Virus record (IMG/VR): IMGVR_UViG_3300031576_000065
Coordinates: 1 to 50,791 of that record
Origin: a virus
Lineage: Duplodnaviria > Caudoviricetes
Length of the DNA stretch: 50,791 nt
Strand: one strand, 5' to 3'
Part shown: positions 1 through 49,006 of the stretch, one piece after another
Layout of the letters: each line of letters starts with the position of its first letter
Position numbering within the stretch: position 1 is the stretch's first letter
Program-made: the position numbers and the translations under genes
Notes under the pieces: generated by a model
Database searches by the model: none
Seen by the model: the letters and a program-made list of their open reading frames with translations, nothing else
What the model was told of the DNA's origin: nothing

Positions 1-235
1 GAATTGCTGCATCTGCCAGCTTGACCTGAATTTCCTGGGCCTTAAGCTGCATATCCAGTGGAGTAAGCGGGTCATTCCCCGCCTCGTCCTGGTCGATCTT
101 ATCAATGCTATCGGACACCCAGGTTTCAAGCGGCGGCTCCTGCATATCCTCTGCTGTAACGTCGATACCTGCGCGATCCAGGATCTTCGCTGTAGCAGTA
201 GGCCCGGCCGTGCTCTTGATCTGCAAGGTCGGTGT
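1..235. repeat. Terminal overlap copy 1 (contig circularisation)
   Basis: Bases 1-235 match 50557-50791 except A128 vs G50684 (synonymous CTT/CTC Leu in the portal frame). Confidence 0.97.
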
Positions 236-2269
236 AACCGGCTTGAACTCGATGGGCTTCGGTAGCTGCGCCAATGCTTCCTGAGTGAGTTGATAATGGG
301 TAATGAAGGACTGCTTGGACTCCATTGGCAGCGACTCGAACTCAGGGGACTTCATAAACAAAGCGTGAACATCAAGGTGAGACTGTAGATTCTCGAACAA
401 ATTGGGTCGCAGAGACTCCTGTTGTATATACTGCTGCTGCGCCTCAGGATCCGTCACCGGCTCCCCTTCTGGGCTAACCGCCTGTCCTGACTCTATCTGC
501 GTCTGTGCGTTCATCATGGAAATCATGTTGACCGGCTGCCCTGCTAGGATTCTATCATGTTCGCGATATGCCTGGTCTTCATCTGCCTGGAAGATCATAG
601 ACAGACCCTCAAGATCTGCAATATCGAGATACTTATACGCCTGGTCGGGGCGAAGAACCCCGCGATCCACATAGTCCAGGATTCGCTGCTGTCTGCCCGC
701 ACGTGTGCGCGGTAGCGCTGATCCTGTTTCCACATTGATTGACACCCCACCCTTCAGGTCGGCCTGTGAGAAGCGTCGGGCTTTCGTGGAACCACCGGAA
801 CCATACACCTTCAGAAGTCGGGGCTCCTTGTAGTATTCCTGCGCAAGATTGAGCATAAGCTCACCTGAGCGGGCTAGCGACCGTTCGAGAAGTAGGATAC
901 GTGGGGCCAGCCTGTCGGTCGCCATTTCCTGAAGTAGGTCAATAGCAATACCGGCCTCAACATTCGGAGGAGGCGTACCTTCTGTGATATCCACGATTCC
1001 AAATGCCTGCCTAATATCGTCTCTAAGATTCTTAAGGTGCTCAAAGACATAGGGAGGCATTGAAGGCAATTGCTCAACTTCAGGCTTGTGATCTCCGATG
1101 ATATTATACTCGTATACAGCACCAGGCTCGGAGGTCAAGCGCACCCCTGTAAGGCTACCTGTAGGTGCCCACACGCGAGGCTTGAGCGTAAGATTCTTAT
1201 ATTCGACAATCTGGGAGATTGTCTTGTTGAGGTCCTTCTGGATCGGAATAGCGCCTTCAACGTCTCCCATGTCGTAAATCTGCCCCGGCACACGAATACC
1301 AGGAAATTTGACCAGCGGCAACTTATCAGTGGGGTACGGCCATGACTGGTCTTCCAACATATGCTCGTCCACCCAGGTCACCATACGTCCATTAGGAATA
1401 GTCGATTGCGGAAGGAAGTAGCCAACGTTAACGCCCTTCACGCTTGGTTCGGTTGCATTAAGTGCCGAACCCGGCATCGTGGAGCCAACATCATTACCCG
1501 TTGGTATAGCGTCGGCTTTGACTTCCACGCCCCACTTTTTCTTGATTTCCTCTGGCGTCATATTATGGACACAGATGACATATTTGGCCTCGTCAAAGAC
1601 CTTGGCGCTATCATCCACAAACACATCAAACGGGGAGAGAACCTCTACCTTGATGTCCCCCATATAGACAACTTTCTCTTGTGGCTGAATACCGATATTA
1701 GATAGTTCAGCCCGAAAAAGATCCTGCATAGAGGAATCGGTAATGGGATTGCCCTCGGGATCAAGGAGGAAGCGCATCTGCTTACCCGCGTCCTTGTCCC
1801 ATGTAACCTTCCAATAGCCTTGGCCGGTAATAACTGTCCATAAGAGTGCCTCAGCCAATTTATCGTCAAGGCTAAATTCACTCCACCAATGCTCCAACAG
1901 CTTATCGGCTAGCTGGGCGGCCTTAATGTCCGCATCAGAGCCAGATGTAGCCGTAGCATGGGTGACCGGCTTGGTCTTAGTCAGCTTCGCCAGAAGAGCA
2001 TGGGCACCCGGCGAGATTTGATTGTTAACGATCCTCACCCGGTAGCGAGGCTTTTCGCCATCCTCCACCGGTAGAGATTCCAACCGTCTAAGGGACTTAT
2101 TGTAGTAAGTATATTGCTTACCCTTATAGAAGGCTAGAGACAGTTTCCACTGTGCCTCTAGATACTGGCGACCACGCTTCAGGCTGTCAAGTTTTTCATT
2201 TAGATCGGAGGCAGACTTAAGTTTACTTACATCCTTAGTCTGTCCTGCGGCCTGGTCTGAATCAGCCAT
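1..2269 (-). CDS. Portal protein, N-terminal part (continues across the origin to 50378; ~815 aa total)
   Basis: ATG at 2269 after GGAG: MADSDQAAGQTKDV..WKLSLAFYKGKQY..RIVNNQISP..ALLAKLTKTKP..GQGYWKVTWD..EVLSPFDVFVD. Same frame as ORF 50378-50782 across the overlap. Lies between TerL and the scaffold/capsid genes. Confidence 0.85.
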   Translation of the reverse strand, partial: MADSDQAAGQTKDVSKLKSASDLNEKLDSLKRGRQYLEAQWKLSLAFYKGKQYTYYNKSLRRLESLPVEDGEKPRYRVRIVNNQISPGAHALLAKLTKTKPVTHATATSGSDADIKAAQLADKLLEHWWSEFSLDDKLAEALLWTVITGQGYWKVTWDKDAGKQMRFLLDPEGNPITDSSMQDLFRAELSNIGIQPQEKVVYMGDIKVEVLSPFDVFVDDSAKVFDEAKYVICVHNMTPEEIKKKWGVEVKADAIPTGNDVGSTMPGSALNATEPSVKGVNVGYFLPQSTIPNGRMVTWVDEHMLEDQSWPYPTDKLPLVKFPGIRVPGQIYDMGDVEGAIPIQKDLNKTISQIVEYKNLTLKPRVWAPTGSLTGVRLTSEPGAVYEYNIIGDHKPEVEQLPSMPPYVFEHLKNLRDDIRQAFGIVDITEGTPPPNVEAGIAIDLLQEMATDRLAPRILLLERSLARSGELMLNLAQEYYKEPRLLKVYGSGGSTKARRFSQADLKGGVSINVETGSALPRTRAGRQQRILDYVDRGVLRPDQAYKYLDIADLEGLSMIFQADEDQAYREHDRILAGQPVNMISMMNAQTQIESGQAVSPEGEPVTDPEAQQQYIQQESLRPNLFENLQSHLDVHALFMKSPEFESLPMESKQSFITHYQLTQEALAQLPKPIEFKPVTPTLQIKSTAGPTATAKILDRAGIDVTAEDMQEPPLETWVSDSIDKIDQDEAGNDPLTPLDMQLKAQEIQVKLADAAI

Positions 2270-8153: not shown

Positions 8154-8228
8154 TGGCTGGATCGCTAGGACTCGAACCTAGATCGCCGGGTTCAGAGCCC
8201 GGAATCCTTCCGATTAGACGACGTTCCA
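8154..8228 (-). tRNA. tRNA-Gln (anticodon CTG)
   Basis: TGGAACG/CGATCCA acceptor stem (one A-A mismatch), anticodon arm CCGGG-CTCTGAA-CCCGG, T arm CTAGG-TTCGAGT-CCTAG, encoded 3' CCA. Confidence 0.93.
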
Positions 8229-45869: not shown

Positions 45870-46322
45870 TTATCTCCCATCACCTGGCATATAGACTTTA
45901 ACGGGGGCCTTGTCCGACCCCATTTTTCTAAAACCCCACTCCATAGACTCAGCCAGCTGGCCGTCAACATCTGAGTGGTCCTTGTTCATCAGCAAATCGT
46001 TCTGCCGATTCCATTCATCAATGATTTCGTGTCCACGTCTCACAGCATCCGACTGGTATAGCCGTTTCTTGATTTCCTCCGGTGCGGGGATTCTATTTGG
46101 GGGTACAAATCCTAGGATAGGCAGGTCGCCAAACTTACTGGCGTCGTTGCTCCCGACCTTGAGATAGACACAATACTGCTGGGTCTTCTCATTGAAGCCA
46201 AAATCTAGGTTTGGATCGTACTCCCCTGCCGCCTTGCGGGCGGCAATAAGTTCCCTCGCCTGATATCCGAAAGGTGTCCAAATCTGTGCTAATTCGCGTT
46301 CCATATGTCTCCAATTGGACAT
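45870..46322 (-). CDS. Hypothetical protein downstream of the capsid gene
   Basis: 150-aa ORF; no clear SD sequence. Confidence 0.65.
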   Translation of the reverse strand: MSNWRHMERELAQIWTPFGYQARELIAARKAAGEYDPNLDFGFNEKTQQYCVYLKVGSNDASKFGDLPILGFVPPNRIPAPEEIKKRLYQSDAVRRGHEIIDEWNRQNDLLMNKDHSDVDGQLAESMEWGFRKMGSDKAPVKVYMPGDGR

Positions 46323-46428
46323 TGGAGAAGGAGGGGGTACGTCTCCCTTGCCCCCACTTCACTAAAGGTGCGTGCATCTAAGAACAATTATACACTATCC
46401 TTCTCCAAATTATCCTAAGGATTATATA

Positions 46429-46526
46429 CTAAATCCCAGAAGGATCATCCGTCAGTCCATACAGGACCAGCTGCGTGTTCCTCCGCTGAGCGCCGAGGTT
46501 GCAATACTTCGCAAGCACGGCCTCCC
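46429..46526 (-). CDS. Major capsid protein, exon 3
   Basis: T|GG GAG.. gives (GFDA)WEAVLAKYCNLGAQRRNTQLVLYGLTDDPSGI*. Confidence 0.85.
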
Positions 46527-47174
46527 CTAATGTTTTTCAACATGGACTATATCTTTCTCAAGGGCGCTTGTGGCCTCATCGCTTTCGCTGAGCCTAGTCT
46601 CTAGAGCTTCAAAACGCTGTTGCATAAGTTCAACATCTTTTTCAACATCGCTTCGCTTGCTACGGTATTCCCGCGTTGGTATTTCCAACCACGTATCCAC
46701 CGTTTTCACCCTTTTATTATTTCCTTTGGTGTTACACTGAGCCAATTTCTCTGCTAAATTCTGGTATCTAGATACATATTTATCAGAATTTTTAGAGTTT
46801 TTAGGCTGCCCGGTCTTGGCCTTCATAATCATATTACGCCCATAATGGGCCTGTATTGAAAGCGCAATTTTTACTTGGTCATGCTTTAGGACAATGTAAG
46901 GTTTCATTTCTTCCAAAAAACGCTGAGCGTTTGTCCCCAATAACTCAAATTGCCATTGGGGAGCCCAATGTTCTTTCTGGCTTTTTCTATAGTATAATTT
47001 CCCTTCTGGAAATTCCGCAAGAAATAAACCAATTGGGAGAGGATCAGTTGAAGCAACCGCCACATGCAAACACGGATTGCTTTGTCCAGATTTTGAAACC
47101 TTAATCCAACCTTCTCCATCAAAGAATCCGGCTAGATACGCTCTCATAGAGCGTCTTTTATTATTCATCGCCAT
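46527..47174 (-). CDS. Intron-encoded LAGLIDADG endonuclease 2
   Basis: AYLAGFFDGEG..FLEEMKPY..K..Q; the G of its TAG stop is the intron omega-G. Confidence 0.88.
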   Translation of the reverse strand: MAMNNKRRSMRAYLAGFFDGEGWIKVSKSGQSNPCLHVAVASTDPLPIGLFLAEFPEGKLYYRKSQKEHWAPQWQFELLGTNAQRFLEEMKPYIVLKHDQVKIALSIQAHYGRNMIMKAKTGQPKNSKNSDKYVSRYQNLAEKLAQCNTKGNNKRVKTVDTWLEIPTREYRSKRSDVEKDVELMQQRFEALETRLSESDEATSALEKDIVHVEKH

Positions 47175-47213
47175 CTATCGTGGCCTCTCTAGAAATATGT
47201 GCTCAGGAAACCT
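46527..47213 (-). mobile_element. Group I intron 2 in the major capsid gene (687 nt)
   Basis: 5' exon ends in U within P1 GCUU|AGG-UUU-CCUGAGC; P3 AGGGUG/CGCCCU; P4 ACGGU/ACCGU; P6 AGC/GCU; P7 GACUA/UAGUC with AAGAUAUAGUCC; P9 AUGUU-GAAA-AACAU; ends in G. Confidence 0.92.
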
Positions 47214-47962
47214 AAGCGTCAAACCCAACAACCCACTTGAGAATGTTACCATCCTCGTCAAGCCAGTTCCAGTCGCCGGTATCGAACATCTTCAGATGCT
47301 TCTCGTCGAGGAAGAAGACCTTCCCAAACGGAGCCTGACGATCCGCGATAAACGGCTGACCGAAGTAGTCGAGTGCCTTAAACCCTCCCTTGAGGGTCAT
47401 CGGCTCAACATACCTGACCTGGGGCTGCAGGAGGTTGAATAGCGCACGCTGAATGCCCGGACTGGAAATCATACCAGAGGTATCTCCGCCGGCAACCGTC
47501 ACCGTGTTGACACTCTGGGTCATAAGATCCAGTGTAAGAGCACCCGCAGCGTTAATGCGGTTCACGTCCCACCAACCATTACCCACCGCCGACGCGTCAA
47601 TACCACCAAAGGTATTGGCGGCCGTAGGTATCACCTGTGACAAACCAGCGATCTCATAAGAGACCGAGGAAGCCGCAGCGTTACCCTGGCGAAAGATAAA
47701 GTCAGTACCGGAAGTCATCGTCACAACAGCACCATCAATGGTGATCTGCGCTAGTGAGACGCTGACATCGGTAACCCCACGGTCTGCAAACCGTGTGGTC
47801 GGAGCAGCAAGGGTACCGCCGTCAATCTGCATTCCAATATACACCTCACCCTTACGAAGCGGCTCGGCTGTATTGGTAGAACCGCCCGAGATGGGGCGGA
47901 TATCGATGACGTTGGCAGCGGCAGCGGAACCGGAAGAAATCCGGGCCGTACCGTCCCCGTAT
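47214..47962 (-). CDS. Major capsid protein, exon 2
   Basis: YGDGTARISSG..EIAGL..GGID..LTLDLM..LKGGF..PFIAD..; open frame from 47961. Confidence 0.88.
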
Positions 47963-48608
47963 CAAGTATATTATACTTGGACTATATCTTTCTCAGGGGC
48001 GCTAGTGGCTTCAACGCTTTCGCTGTGCCTAGTCTCTACACCTTCAAGATGCTCTCGAATCTTTTTTACATCTGATTCTGCTTCATCTTGCTTGGCTCGG
48101 TATTGTCTGGATTTAGAAGGCCAGAGTTCCACCGAGTTCACCCCTAGTGTTCCTTTTTGCTCTTTCATCTTATCGGCAATTTGTTGTGCGCGTCGATGAA
48201 AATGAGCCGGATAAGGAGCATTCATTGGCAACTTTTTACGCCGCCTATCTGCACGATACCGACTTGAGTAGTTTAAAAATGACAGAGCAAGTTTTATCTG
48301 TTCATGCTTATAAACTACATAGGGCTTCATTTCTTCAAGAAACCGTCGAGCGGTTTCTCCATATAGATTGAGCCGATAGGCCCCATCAATTTTTTTAAAA
48401 GTAGCTTCTGGATACTCTTGAAAAAGAAGCCCGATAGGGAGGGGGACAATCATATGAATTCCTACAGAAAGTCTCCACACCCCACCAGTAAAGTAAACCC
48501 CAACAGTTCCCTCGCCGTCGAATAAACCGGCAAAATATGCTTGGAGTTTCTCTCTCTTACGAGTCATACGCCCTCACTTGGGTTTGAAAGGATACAGCCA
48601 TACATTAT
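47963..48608 (-). mobile_element. Group I intron 1 in the major capsid gene (646 nt)
   Basis: P1 CAGCU|AUA-AUG-UAUGGCUG with U.G pair; P3 GGGGUG/CGCCCC; P4 CUCGGU/ACCGAG; P5 UCUGG/CCAGA; P6a CAAGAUG/CAUCUUG; P7 GACUA/UAGUC; P9 AAGUAU/AUACUU; ends in G. Confidence 0.92.
47971..48567 (-). CDS. Intron-encoded LAGLIDADG endonuclease 1
   Basis: AYFAGLFDGEG..FLEEMKPY..KHEQ; stop lies inside P9. Confidence 0.88.
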   Translation of the reverse strand: MTRKREKLQAYFAGLFDGEGTVGVYFTGGVWRLSVGIHMIVPLPIGLLFQEYPEATFKKIDGAYRLNLYGETARRFLEEMKPYVVYKHEQIKLALSFLNYSSRYRADRRRKKLPMNAPYPAHFHRRAQQIADKMKEQKGTLGVNSVELWPSKSRQYRAKQDEAESDVKKIREHLEGVETRHSESVEATSAPEKDIVQV

Positions 48609-49006
48609 AGCTGGCGAGCTAGATCCATCTTAAGGTCGTTTCTCATACCATTGATTTCGCCCTCAAGCACCTTAAGAAAGGCACCTGCCTGGGTCGCAGT
48701 CTTCACGCGGCCAAGTCCAGTGATACGAACGCGTCCGTAGAGCGCCTTGATATCGTAGACCGGCTTTGCATAAAGCTGTGCGCCAGGGTTGGCGAACTGA
48801 ACATTCTCGCCGCGTGCGAACACGCCAGCAGAACGCTGCTTATGGACAGAGAGGACGACCTGGTTGCCCGAGAAATCCTGGGACTCACGGCCGATGCGCT
48901 GAGGAATCAGCACTTCGTTGTTTAGCTGCTCCACAACGGAGCCTAGATAAACATCCTTGAGAACACCAGAAAGAGTCGAGGCAACAGATGCGCCTAGAAA
49001 AGCCAT
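48609..49006 (-). CDS. Major capsid protein, exon 1 (spliced product 414 aa)
   Basis: AGGAG RBS; MAFLGASVASTLSGVLKDVY..DLARQL; exon lengths 398+749+98=1245 nt give one open frame. Confidence 0.88.

Follow-up and report, generated by a model that had tools for sequence, protein, structure and literature searches.

Homing-endonuclease reading frames are known to extend into the cores of group I ribozymes, a phenomenon termed core creep (Edgell, Chalamcharla and Belfort, 2011; PMC3073962). The overlaps listed in that paper range from 0 to 81 nt, including 20 nt for T4 td/I-TevI and 81 nt for the Synechococcus lividus LSU LAGLIDADG case; the paper also discusses the dual selective pressure on such overlaps, and predicts extensions that are variable in length and possibly non-essential. 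Such overlap was proposed to arise by accident. Here we describe two introns from a Caudoviricetes genome (IMG/VR record IMGVR_UViG_3300031576_000065; “the window” denotes the whole 50,791-nt stretch analysed) in which, likewise, ribozyme core sequence forms the 3′ end of the ORF. In contrast to the listed 0–81 nt, the overlap here comprises about 170–185 nt of coding sequence from P3 to P9, and instead of the predicted variability, the frame passes P7 in 43 of 45 family clusters and reaches P7′ in 37. Overlap of ORF and core is already described; relative to the cases listed in that paper, the novelty lies in how far it extends (through the entire core), in how well it is conserved, and in P8 having been lost.

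Three other groups of known elements are close to this locus. The endonucleases I-CreI, I-CvuI and I-MsoI resemble the encoded proteins over the N-terminal ~140 residues by profile (E 6.6e-9 to 1e-4) and in fold (Foldseek E 5e-8, TM up to 0.74, target-normalised), and share the single LAGLIDADG motif, but they end after the core fold, without the 57-residue tail found here. ORF-less phage introns (e.g., L181, L179, L175), found by model R1 or by a shared motif, have the same P3-J3/4-P4, P4′-P6 and J6/7-P7 sequences and the same hairpin between P7 and P3′. They differ in having a short P8, Rfam scores of 61–76 bits and stops in the tail frame, whereas the family described here lacks P8 and scores 18–36 bits or nothing, with none of four family loci reaching an Rfam E of 0.001. 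Finally, LAGLIDADG maturases such as I-AniI and the Thermotoga neapolitana 23S intron protein (PMC3984707) are also intron-encoded and could aid folding of their own intron; I-AniI, bI3 maturase and I-TnaI chains were among our weaker profile and Foldseek matches.

Two group I introns in a major capsid gene

An SU10-type major capsid gene on the minus strand, as are all features below, is interrupted by two paralogous group I introns. Exon 1 (48609..49006; phrog_14242, major head protein) ends in ...CAG CU and is 95% identical to residues 1–133 of the intron-less homolog P0038. Exon 2 (47214..47962; Pfam SU10_MCP) is 90% identical to P0038 residues 134–381, and exon 3 (46429..46526) consists of GG, 31 codons and UAG, with 30 of its 31 residues equal to the P0038 C-terminus. 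Joined, the three exons give 414 codons; intron-less homologs are 413–414 aa long, with identity up to 90%.

These homologs set the splice sites. Intron 1 (47963..48608, 646 nt) has borders at 48609|48608 and 47963|47962, with the 5′ splice site after U48609 and the junction ...ARQL|YGDG...; intron 2 (46527..47213, 687 nt) has borders at 47214|47213 and 46527|46526, with the 5′ splice site after U47214 and the junction ...GFDA-W-EAVL.... Guide pairings were read from the sequence. For intron 1, P1 pairs exon CAGCU with the IGS GGCUG (48595–48599) and P10 pairs exon 2 AUAC with GUAU (48600–48603); for intron 2, exon GCUU pairs with GAGC (47201–47204) and exon 3 GGGAGG with UUUCCU (47205–47210). 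In each intron, P1 sets the U before the 5′ splice site opposite a G, the guide has a second partner in the 3′ exon, and, on the homolog junctions, the intron ends in an omega-G (G47963 in intron 1, G46527 in intron 2). The fit of P1, P10 and omega-G to the homolog-derived junctions supports both the introns and their borders.

The original prediction read both stretches as ribozyme cores, and they are group I cores on the minus strand. Matches to Rfam RF00028 were 36.4 bits for intron 1 (E 4.9e-7, 47958–48214) and 17.9 bits for intron 2 (E 0.16, 46528–46767), neither reaching the gathering score of 50 bits, at which nothing is reported there. Model R1 gave 177 and 179 bits, respectively. Standard Rfam thresholds miss both introns, and annotation at those thresholds would break the capsid gene into three fragments. 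Since this gene is essential and is restored to 414 codons on intron removal, both introns are predicted to be self-splicing with guanosine; the family offers P8-less group I introns within an essential gene.

Endonuclease ORFs and the RNA core they traverse

Each intron carries one LAGLIDADG ORF that reads through P3, P4-P6, P7, P7.1, P3′ and P7′ and terminates in P9. ORF 1 (47971..48567, 198 aa) stops at a UAA (47971–47973) within the P9 hairpin, with omega-G 8 nt further on; in ORF 2 (46527..47174, 215 aa), the G of the UAG stop is the last intron base. Profile matches of ORF 1 in the PDB are to I-CreI/I-MsoI (E 6.6e-9) over residues 8–140 only, and its Foldseek matches are I-CvuI/I-CreI (E 5e-8); ORF 2 matches phrog_5046 (E 1.4e-20) over residues 11–149 only. 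The Pfam LAGLIDADG_3 scores were 21.4 and 16.8 bits, under the gathering cut-off of 22.5. A model with the elements H3-19, E20-27, E30-39, H42-51, E56-60, E63-69 and H70-80 (pLDDT >90) has the LAGLIDADG alpha-beta-beta-alpha-beta-beta-alpha fold, and Y..AG.FDGEG, the LAGLIDADG motif with its acidic residue, is invariant or nearly so among homologs. With one motif and I-CreI-family profile and fold matches, the single-motif LAGLIDADG identity first assigned to these proteins holds, and the two peptides align as claimed, tails included (40% identity over 211 residues).

The dual-use stretch of intron 1 (47974..48145), its structure counted on alignment A3, encodes tail residues ~142–198. Its helices are P3 (5′ strand 48139–48145, P3′ 47995–48001), P4 (48130–48136 with 48096–48102), P6 (48094–48095 with 48041–48042), P6a (48084–48090 with 48045–48051) and P7 (48030–48034 with 47980–47984), together with the P7.1 hairpin (48007–48029) and the P9 hairpin (47963–47979). 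The equivalent stretch of intron 2 (46530..46713; tail residues ~157–215, also on alignment A3) contains P3 (5′ strand 46707–46713, P3′ 46560–46566), P4 (46698–46704 with 46661–46667), P6 (46659–46660 with 46606–46607), P6a (46649–46655 with 46610–46616), P7 (46595–46599 with 46545–46549), P7.1 (46572–46594) and P9 with a GAAA loop (46530–46543).

Covariation was counted on six DNA sequences, the two introns of the window and four more family members. Paired cells amounted to 95.5%, a value matched by 0 of 500 shuffles, while slid controls were 34–49% paired. Both sides had changed in 11 of 33 pairs (4 of 7 in P3, 3 of 6 in P6a, and one each in P4, P6 and P7.1); P7 was invariant and hence carries no covariation information. 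The compensatory differences reported between the two cores are indeed present, with GC vs. AU at P3 pair 8/189, UA vs. AU at P4 pair 17/58, and CG vs. GC at P6 pair 60/138. The P3–P7 pseudoknot with P4-P6, as expected of a group I intron, is backed by this covariation. Both cores also contain the extra P7.1 hairpin between P7 and P3′, which the first description did not include. A P2 duplex closing the ORF-bearing loop beat shuffles in L135, L001 and L099 (0.03, 0.085 and 0.0 of shuffles at or below the real value) and was no better than shuffles in the two introns of the window and L146 (0.70, 0.705 and 0.655); because of the latter, placement of the ORF in the P2 loop is tentative.

P8 is normally counted within the conserved core of group I introns. 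It is missing from both cores (deleted in the Rfam alignment), P3′ joining J8/7 directly in all six DNA members, and it is present in the relatives L181, L171, L191 and L158. In the limited literature collection searched, we found no relevant account of a group I intron without P8. One way to view this loss is that the ribozyme was remodelled as a gene (P8 deleted, P7.1 re-phased so that UGA and UAA fall out of frame, P6a altered by whole codons) and that the endonuclease, through its tail, acts as a maturase offsetting the missing helix; RNA and protein from the same bases would then be mutually dependent. We see only a slim chance that this view is correct. The tail is net acidic, and any RNA binding by it hypothetical.

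The tail frame is kept open across the family

All proteins compared are predicted ORFs. A first search found 37 of them; all but two (35) remain in frame beyond P7, and 34 extend to P7′. In the second search, which gave the 45 family clusters (50% identity), two clusters end before P7 and six shortly after it, so that the last 13–25 residues are dispensable in some lineages. The frame holds although the P6 segment occurs in 8 length states, the P7.1 segment in 6 and P5 in 3. All 165 gap-free columns of a nucleotide-only core alignment fall in one codon phase, bearing out the observation that length differences between the cores are whole codons. As a control, we took 29 distinct cores outside the family that share the J6/7-P7 motif: 26 carry one or more stops in the tail frame, as opposed to none of the six family members. 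The original prediction named stop and frameshift avoidance among homologs as one of its checks, and in these sequence comparisons homologs retain the tail frame far more often than expected by chance or from RNA conservation by itself.

Several searches bear on how widely the tail occurs. A DNA search of the phage collection, a scan of viral contigs with a single protein, and a search of viral contigs for the exact P7-P7.1 pattern each gave no match. Scans with alignment A2 gave mostly tail-less LAGLIDADG relatives, because the scan pattern is the LAGLIDADG motif itself. With tblastn against 154 loci, the tail was covered only in L001, L099, L135 and L146. Similar cores are also read through in frame by unrelated HNH ORFs (L171 and L191) and by another LAGLIDADG lineage (L158).

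These last cases would fit the idea that translation itself is selected, with ribosomes travelling to the 3′ splice site to time or block core folding, or to guard the RNA against early termination or degradation, and the tail sequence left free. The positions of the two stops, 8 nt before and exactly at the 3′ splice site, agree with this, as do the homolog P0010, which reads on into the downstream exon, and a published link, for ORFs that enter the core, between their translation and the control of splicing (PMC3984707). We consider the idea very unlikely, as six clusters stop shortly after P7, and as it leaves unexplained the conservative replacements, low position-2 variability and hydrophobic stripe described below.

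Alternatively, the tail may be a passive by-product: the ORF runs to the first available stop, and peptide similarity mirrors RNA similarity with no benefit to the protein. The conserved peptide motifs do overlie RNA helices and joints (GVNSV on P3-J3/4-P4, REYRAK on P4′-P6, LEGVETR on P6′-J6/7-P7, and SAPEKDIV on P3′-J8/7-P7′), and ORF-less relatives encode the same motifs. Residues 142 and 191, which occupy stem positions, co-vary as G-P, R-L, K-F, Q-C and W-Q, radical changes that arise because RNA pairing sets them. Low model confidence in the tail and the core-creep prediction of possibly non-essential extensions (PMC3073962) fit as well. A passive tail nevertheless seems unlikely to us, since the frame survives at least 14 length changes in nearly all clusters whereas most related cores have stops in it, and since codon-level differences and the hydrophobic stripe point to the protein.

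The codon-level signal, from six DNA sequences, is real but modest. Differences per codon position in the tail are 0.342/0.254/0.385, position 2 being lowest (sign test p 0.013–0.017), and differing codons in the nucleotide-only alignment score +0.58 by BLOSUM62 in the true frame vs. −0.04 and −0.25 in the other frames. This true-frame advantage is borderline, being absent in 4.5% of bootstraps. Individual positions show the same tendency: residue 163 is valine in five of six sequences with free third bases (GTT, GTT, GTA, GTG, GTA; GCA in the sixth), residue 167 is valine in four of six (GTA, GTT, GTG, GTT), and the second base of codon 170 is T in all six. RNA pairing is the stronger constraint and dominates. 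The original prediction of protein-level selection on the tail therefore stands in part, with frame retention and a weak coding signature in its favour and the pairing-driven changes at 142 and 191 against it.

Shape and possible role of the tail peptide

The tail is predicted to form one amphipathic helix of heptad-like pattern, set between disordered segments. A hydrophobic stripe runs through 35 homologs at positions 163, 167, 170, 174, 177 and 181, about 2.7 heptads with 3.5 as the strongest period, which upholds the heptad-like spacing noted earlier; it persists in the L099/P0180 subfamily despite diverged sequence. Each of the two AF2 models contains one helix (160–183 and 174–198), with tail pLDDT of 39–78 across the two. 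The helix is encoded by the P6a arm, and in six of 45 clusters the P6 segment is only 9 residues, most of the helix being gone. A PDB profile search gave no solved structure resembling the 57-residue tail.

The account we think probable, if by no means assured, is as follows. Two paralogous mobile group I introns split the capsid gene, each with an I-CreI-type LAGLIDADG gene in its 5′ part. As that gene has no stop of its own before the core, translation would continue through P3, P4-P6, P7, P7.1, P3′, J8/7 and P7′ and end in P9 at the 3′ splice site, so that ~57 codons would serve as both catalytic core and protein tail, amounting to core creep over the whole core. Selection would keep the frame open and in phase, which suggests that the tail is produced and is of value to the element. 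Its most likely role, we infer, is as a functional C-terminal appendage to the endonuclease, with the helix packed between subunits or against the dimer on its DNA.

The more specific proposal made originally, that of a coiled-coil dimerisation element in a homodimeric enzyme, would draw on the 3-4 hydrophobic repeat at 163–181, the one helix in both models, and the homodimeric I-CreI type of the N-domain. I-CreI-type enzymes already dimerise through their LAGLIDADG helices, though, the stripe spans fewer than three heptads, and the P6 segment is much shortened in six clusters. Pfam DUF7310 (coiled-coil) scored 16.7 bits on the tail vs. a cut-off of 40, with YwqH-like also far below its cut-off. 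The low model confidence in the tail and its lack of any match among solved structures likewise give dimerisation no support. A tail-only homodimer prediction (residues 137–198, two copies; score 0.02) gave no answer and carries no weight here. We hold dimerisation through the tail to be quite unlikely, and retain the broader appendage reading.

Whatever its role, the tail may plausibly derive from ribozyme sequence that was already there, as originally suggested, because ORF-less relatives have the same core. The whole core amounts to ~57 codons, and dozens of diverged lineages have held on to the frame, which makes the family a natural system in which to ask whether a functional RNA can give rise to a protein segment and go on encoding it. 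Related introns were also observed to occupy related capsid genes: P0010 runs into an exon-3-like peptide, and the exon after L146 is VEQLNNEVL-like.

Two introns in the major capsid gene

The ORF list and family scans place the pieces of the capsid gene on the minus strand, kept apart by two LAGLIDADG-motif ORFs: ORF 1 (198 aa; 47971-48567, minus strand) and ORF 2 (215 aa; 46527-47174, minus strand). In the family scan, Pfam SU10_MCP matched at 47212-47844 (minus strand) and the phrog_14242 major head protein matched two of the pieces. A search with the exon-2 translation returned 119 capsid homologs, mostly 400–416 aa and uninterrupted. Alignment of the best of them, the intron-less P0038 (413 aa, 90% identity), to the window gives junctions between ARQL and YGDGT and at GFDA-W-EAVLAKY, and therefore places intron 1 at 48608..47963 and intron 2 at 47213..46527; joined, the exons make up 414 codons in three pieces.

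A U precedes both 5′ splice sites, and G is the final base of both introns. As read from the sequence, both introns contain a guide that pairs with the end of the 5′ exon, preceded directly by bases that pair with the start of the 3′ exon; these pairings are CAGCU/GGCUG and AUAC/GUAU for intron 1, and GCUU/GAGC and GGGAGG/UUUCCU for intron 2. ORF 1 stops in the P9 hairpin loop region, 8 nt ahead of the last base of intron 1, while the last G of the ORF 2 UAG is the last base of intron 2. Assignment of P2 is tentative in introns of this family, by which we mean those whose ORF has a tail reading through the core. The family intron in locus L146 is followed, downstream of 5129 (minus strand), by VEQLNNEVL-coding sequence, which is like window capsid residues ~24-32; family introns in related capsid genes therefore seem to have three or more distinct insertion sites.

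At the Rfam gathering threshold, a tRNA gene (8157-8228, minus strand; 53.4 bits) was the sole match in the whole window. Neither intron was reported at that threshold in the capsid region (46429-49006, minus strand), so routine annotation would split the gene into three fragments, with two hypothetical ORFs besides. A permissive-threshold search of 46200-48750 gave Intron_gpI matches to the core of intron 1 (47958-48214, minus strand; 36.4 bits, E 4.9e-7) and of intron 2 (46528-46767, minus strand; 17.9 bits, E 0.16), each overlapping the 3′ end of one LAGLIDADG ORF.

RNA covariation and loss of P8

Using tblastn among 154 loci, we found four more DNA family members spanning the tail (L001, L099, L135, and L146). 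On the resulting six-sequence core alignment, a structure comprising P3, P4, P6, P6a, P7, and both stems (outer and inner) of the hairpin between P7 and P3′ pairs 95.5% of cells, and both sides have changed in 11 of 33 pairs. None of 500 shuffles was as high on four of five measures (3/500 on the fifth), and slid controls were 34–49% paired. The pairing of P6a is only 83% because the L001 row is misaligned on its 3′ side; by-eye inspection of the six sequences found no pairing conserved by position in distal P6a. Searched with the covariance model built from this alignment (R1), the window contains exactly two copies. All three compensatory helix changes named in the original prediction, in P3, P4, and P6, appear in the per-pair table.

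Rfam aligns both cores with P8 deleted and with extra sequence inserted between P7 and P3′. P3′ runs directly into J8/7 and P7′ in all six DNA family members, and the S-A-P-E-K-D-I-V stretch is unbroken in protein alignments of the family. Both ORF-less relatives with the same J6/7-P7 motif and introns carrying other endonuclease genes share the P7-P3′ hairpin and also have a short P8. Within one Rfam search, P8-bearing relatives scored 61–76 bits, and none of four family loci reached E 0.001. We presume the family core to be like the Azoarcus-type IC3 core.

An open reading frame through the core

The first protein search yielded 37 proteins, including the window's two; the tail stays in frame through P7 in 35 and reaches P7′ in 34, and two (P0036 and P0037) are tail-less. 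A profile search of 1.84 billion representatives listed 150 proteins, 47 of which were aligned together with P0001 (n = 48); the other 103 were nearly all two-motif proteins matching in the N-domain only, along with two short fragments. Setting aside three tail-less single-domain relatives among the 48 leaves 45 family clusters. With classes assigned by eye and short members possibly cut by contig ends, 37 of the 45 reach P7′, six stop shortly after passing P7 (P0026, P0164, P0174, P0178, P0179, and P0186), and two end ahead of it (P0173 and P0177). Homologs thus almost always keep the frame, with 43 of 45 clusters passing P7 in frame. Segment lengths take eight states in P4′-P7, six in P7-P7′, and three reliable ones in P5, and therefore require at least 14 length changes, every one frame-compatible; this count leaves out larger parsimony figures, which rest on a quick tree.

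The J6/7-P7 motif occurs 64 times in the loci and window (six in the family), and 29 of the 58 non-family occurrences are delimitable and distinct. At least one stop interrupts the family tail frame between P4 and P7′ in 26 of these 29, the exceptions being L191 (where an HNH ORF runs through the core), L195, and one L205 core. That frame is stop-free in all six family sequences, and the other two frames hold 3–12 stops.

Overlap of ORF and core has been described as "core creep," with tabulated overlaps of 0–81 nt and extensions predicted to be variable and possibly non-essential (PMC3073962). Passages in other papers report tight control of ORF expression where ORFs enter the core (PMC3984707) and similar overlap in Bastillevirinae introns (PMC11878797). 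The kind of phenomenon is therefore already known; the family differs from core creep as described in those passages in that the whole core is overlapped, the frame is conserved, and P8 is lost.

Three further loci show read-through, L171 and L191 with HNH ORFs and L158 with another LAGLIDADG lineage, so the phenomenon recurs in phage capsid-gene introns. L191 is an independent case with a different nuclease family: at 2-1213 (plus strand), an SU10-type capsid exon (Pfam E 1.1e-19) runs in frame into the HNH ORF, which reads through a P8-bearing group I core to the core's end.

Neighboring Rfam group I matches were found in L171 (1096-1612, minus strand; 67.1 and 43.1 bits, the latter overlapping the HNH ORF) and L175 (57-1226, plus strand; 60.8 and 66.8 bits). 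In L205 (2-2017, plus strand), three group I cores with EGVETR/EGAETR motifs lie in ~1 kb upstream of capsid-like sequence, all within a single 672-codon open frame of a 4.1 kb contig. In L145 (2328-9978, plus strand), at least 11 R1 matches (18.9–54 bits) crowd into ~7.6 kb of a 73.8 kb viral contig, apparently a densely packed array of cores resembling group I.

The tail peptide

ORF 1 and ORF 2 are 40% identical across 211 residues. A profile of the 37 homologs matches I-CreI, I-MsoI, and I-CvuI chains over residues 8-140 only, and Foldseek agrees. Both proteins also match phrog_5046 (E 1.4e-20 at 46527-47174 and 9.2e-12 at 47971-48567, both minus strand), whose label "HNH endonuclease" does not fit the LAGLIDADG fold found. 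AlphaFold models the N-domain of both ORFs at pLDDT > 90 and the tail, at 39–69 (ORF 1) and 45–78 (ORF 2), as a single helix (residues 160-183 and 174-198, respectively).

The proposal of protein-level selection on the tail held up in part, favored by a frame-specific codon signal and a hydrophobic stripe. Across six DNA sequences, differences at codon positions 1/2/3 were 0.342/0.254/0.385 in the tail vs. 0.522/0.413/0.696 in the N-domain; tail position 2 lies below positions 3 and 1 (sign test, p 0.0135 and 0.0167), and position 3 is not above position 1 (p 0.53). In a nucleotide-only alignment, the true frame exceeded the other two in BLOSUM62 score of differing tail codons (+0.58 vs. -0.04 and -0.25) and synonymous fraction (0.19 vs. 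0.11 and 0.12), and held no stop codons (vs. 37 and 31); 4.5% of bootstraps lacked this advantage. On this six-sequence basis a coding signal is present but modest.

Residues 142 and 191 argue against strong protein constraint. They covary one-to-one (G-P 19, R-L 5, A-A 3, E-S 2, R-R 2, and W-Q, Q-C, and K-F once each), which is the P3 helix as translated into protein by the genetic code, and these sites evidently tolerate radical replacements. In favor of constraint is the predicted heptad-like spacing, which was recovered: positions 163, 167, 170, 174, 177, and 181 are hydrophobic in 49–100% of 35 sequences, and the strongest period is 3.5. Codons of this stripe vary at third positions, and the L099/P0180 subfamily has a similar stripe of different sequence.
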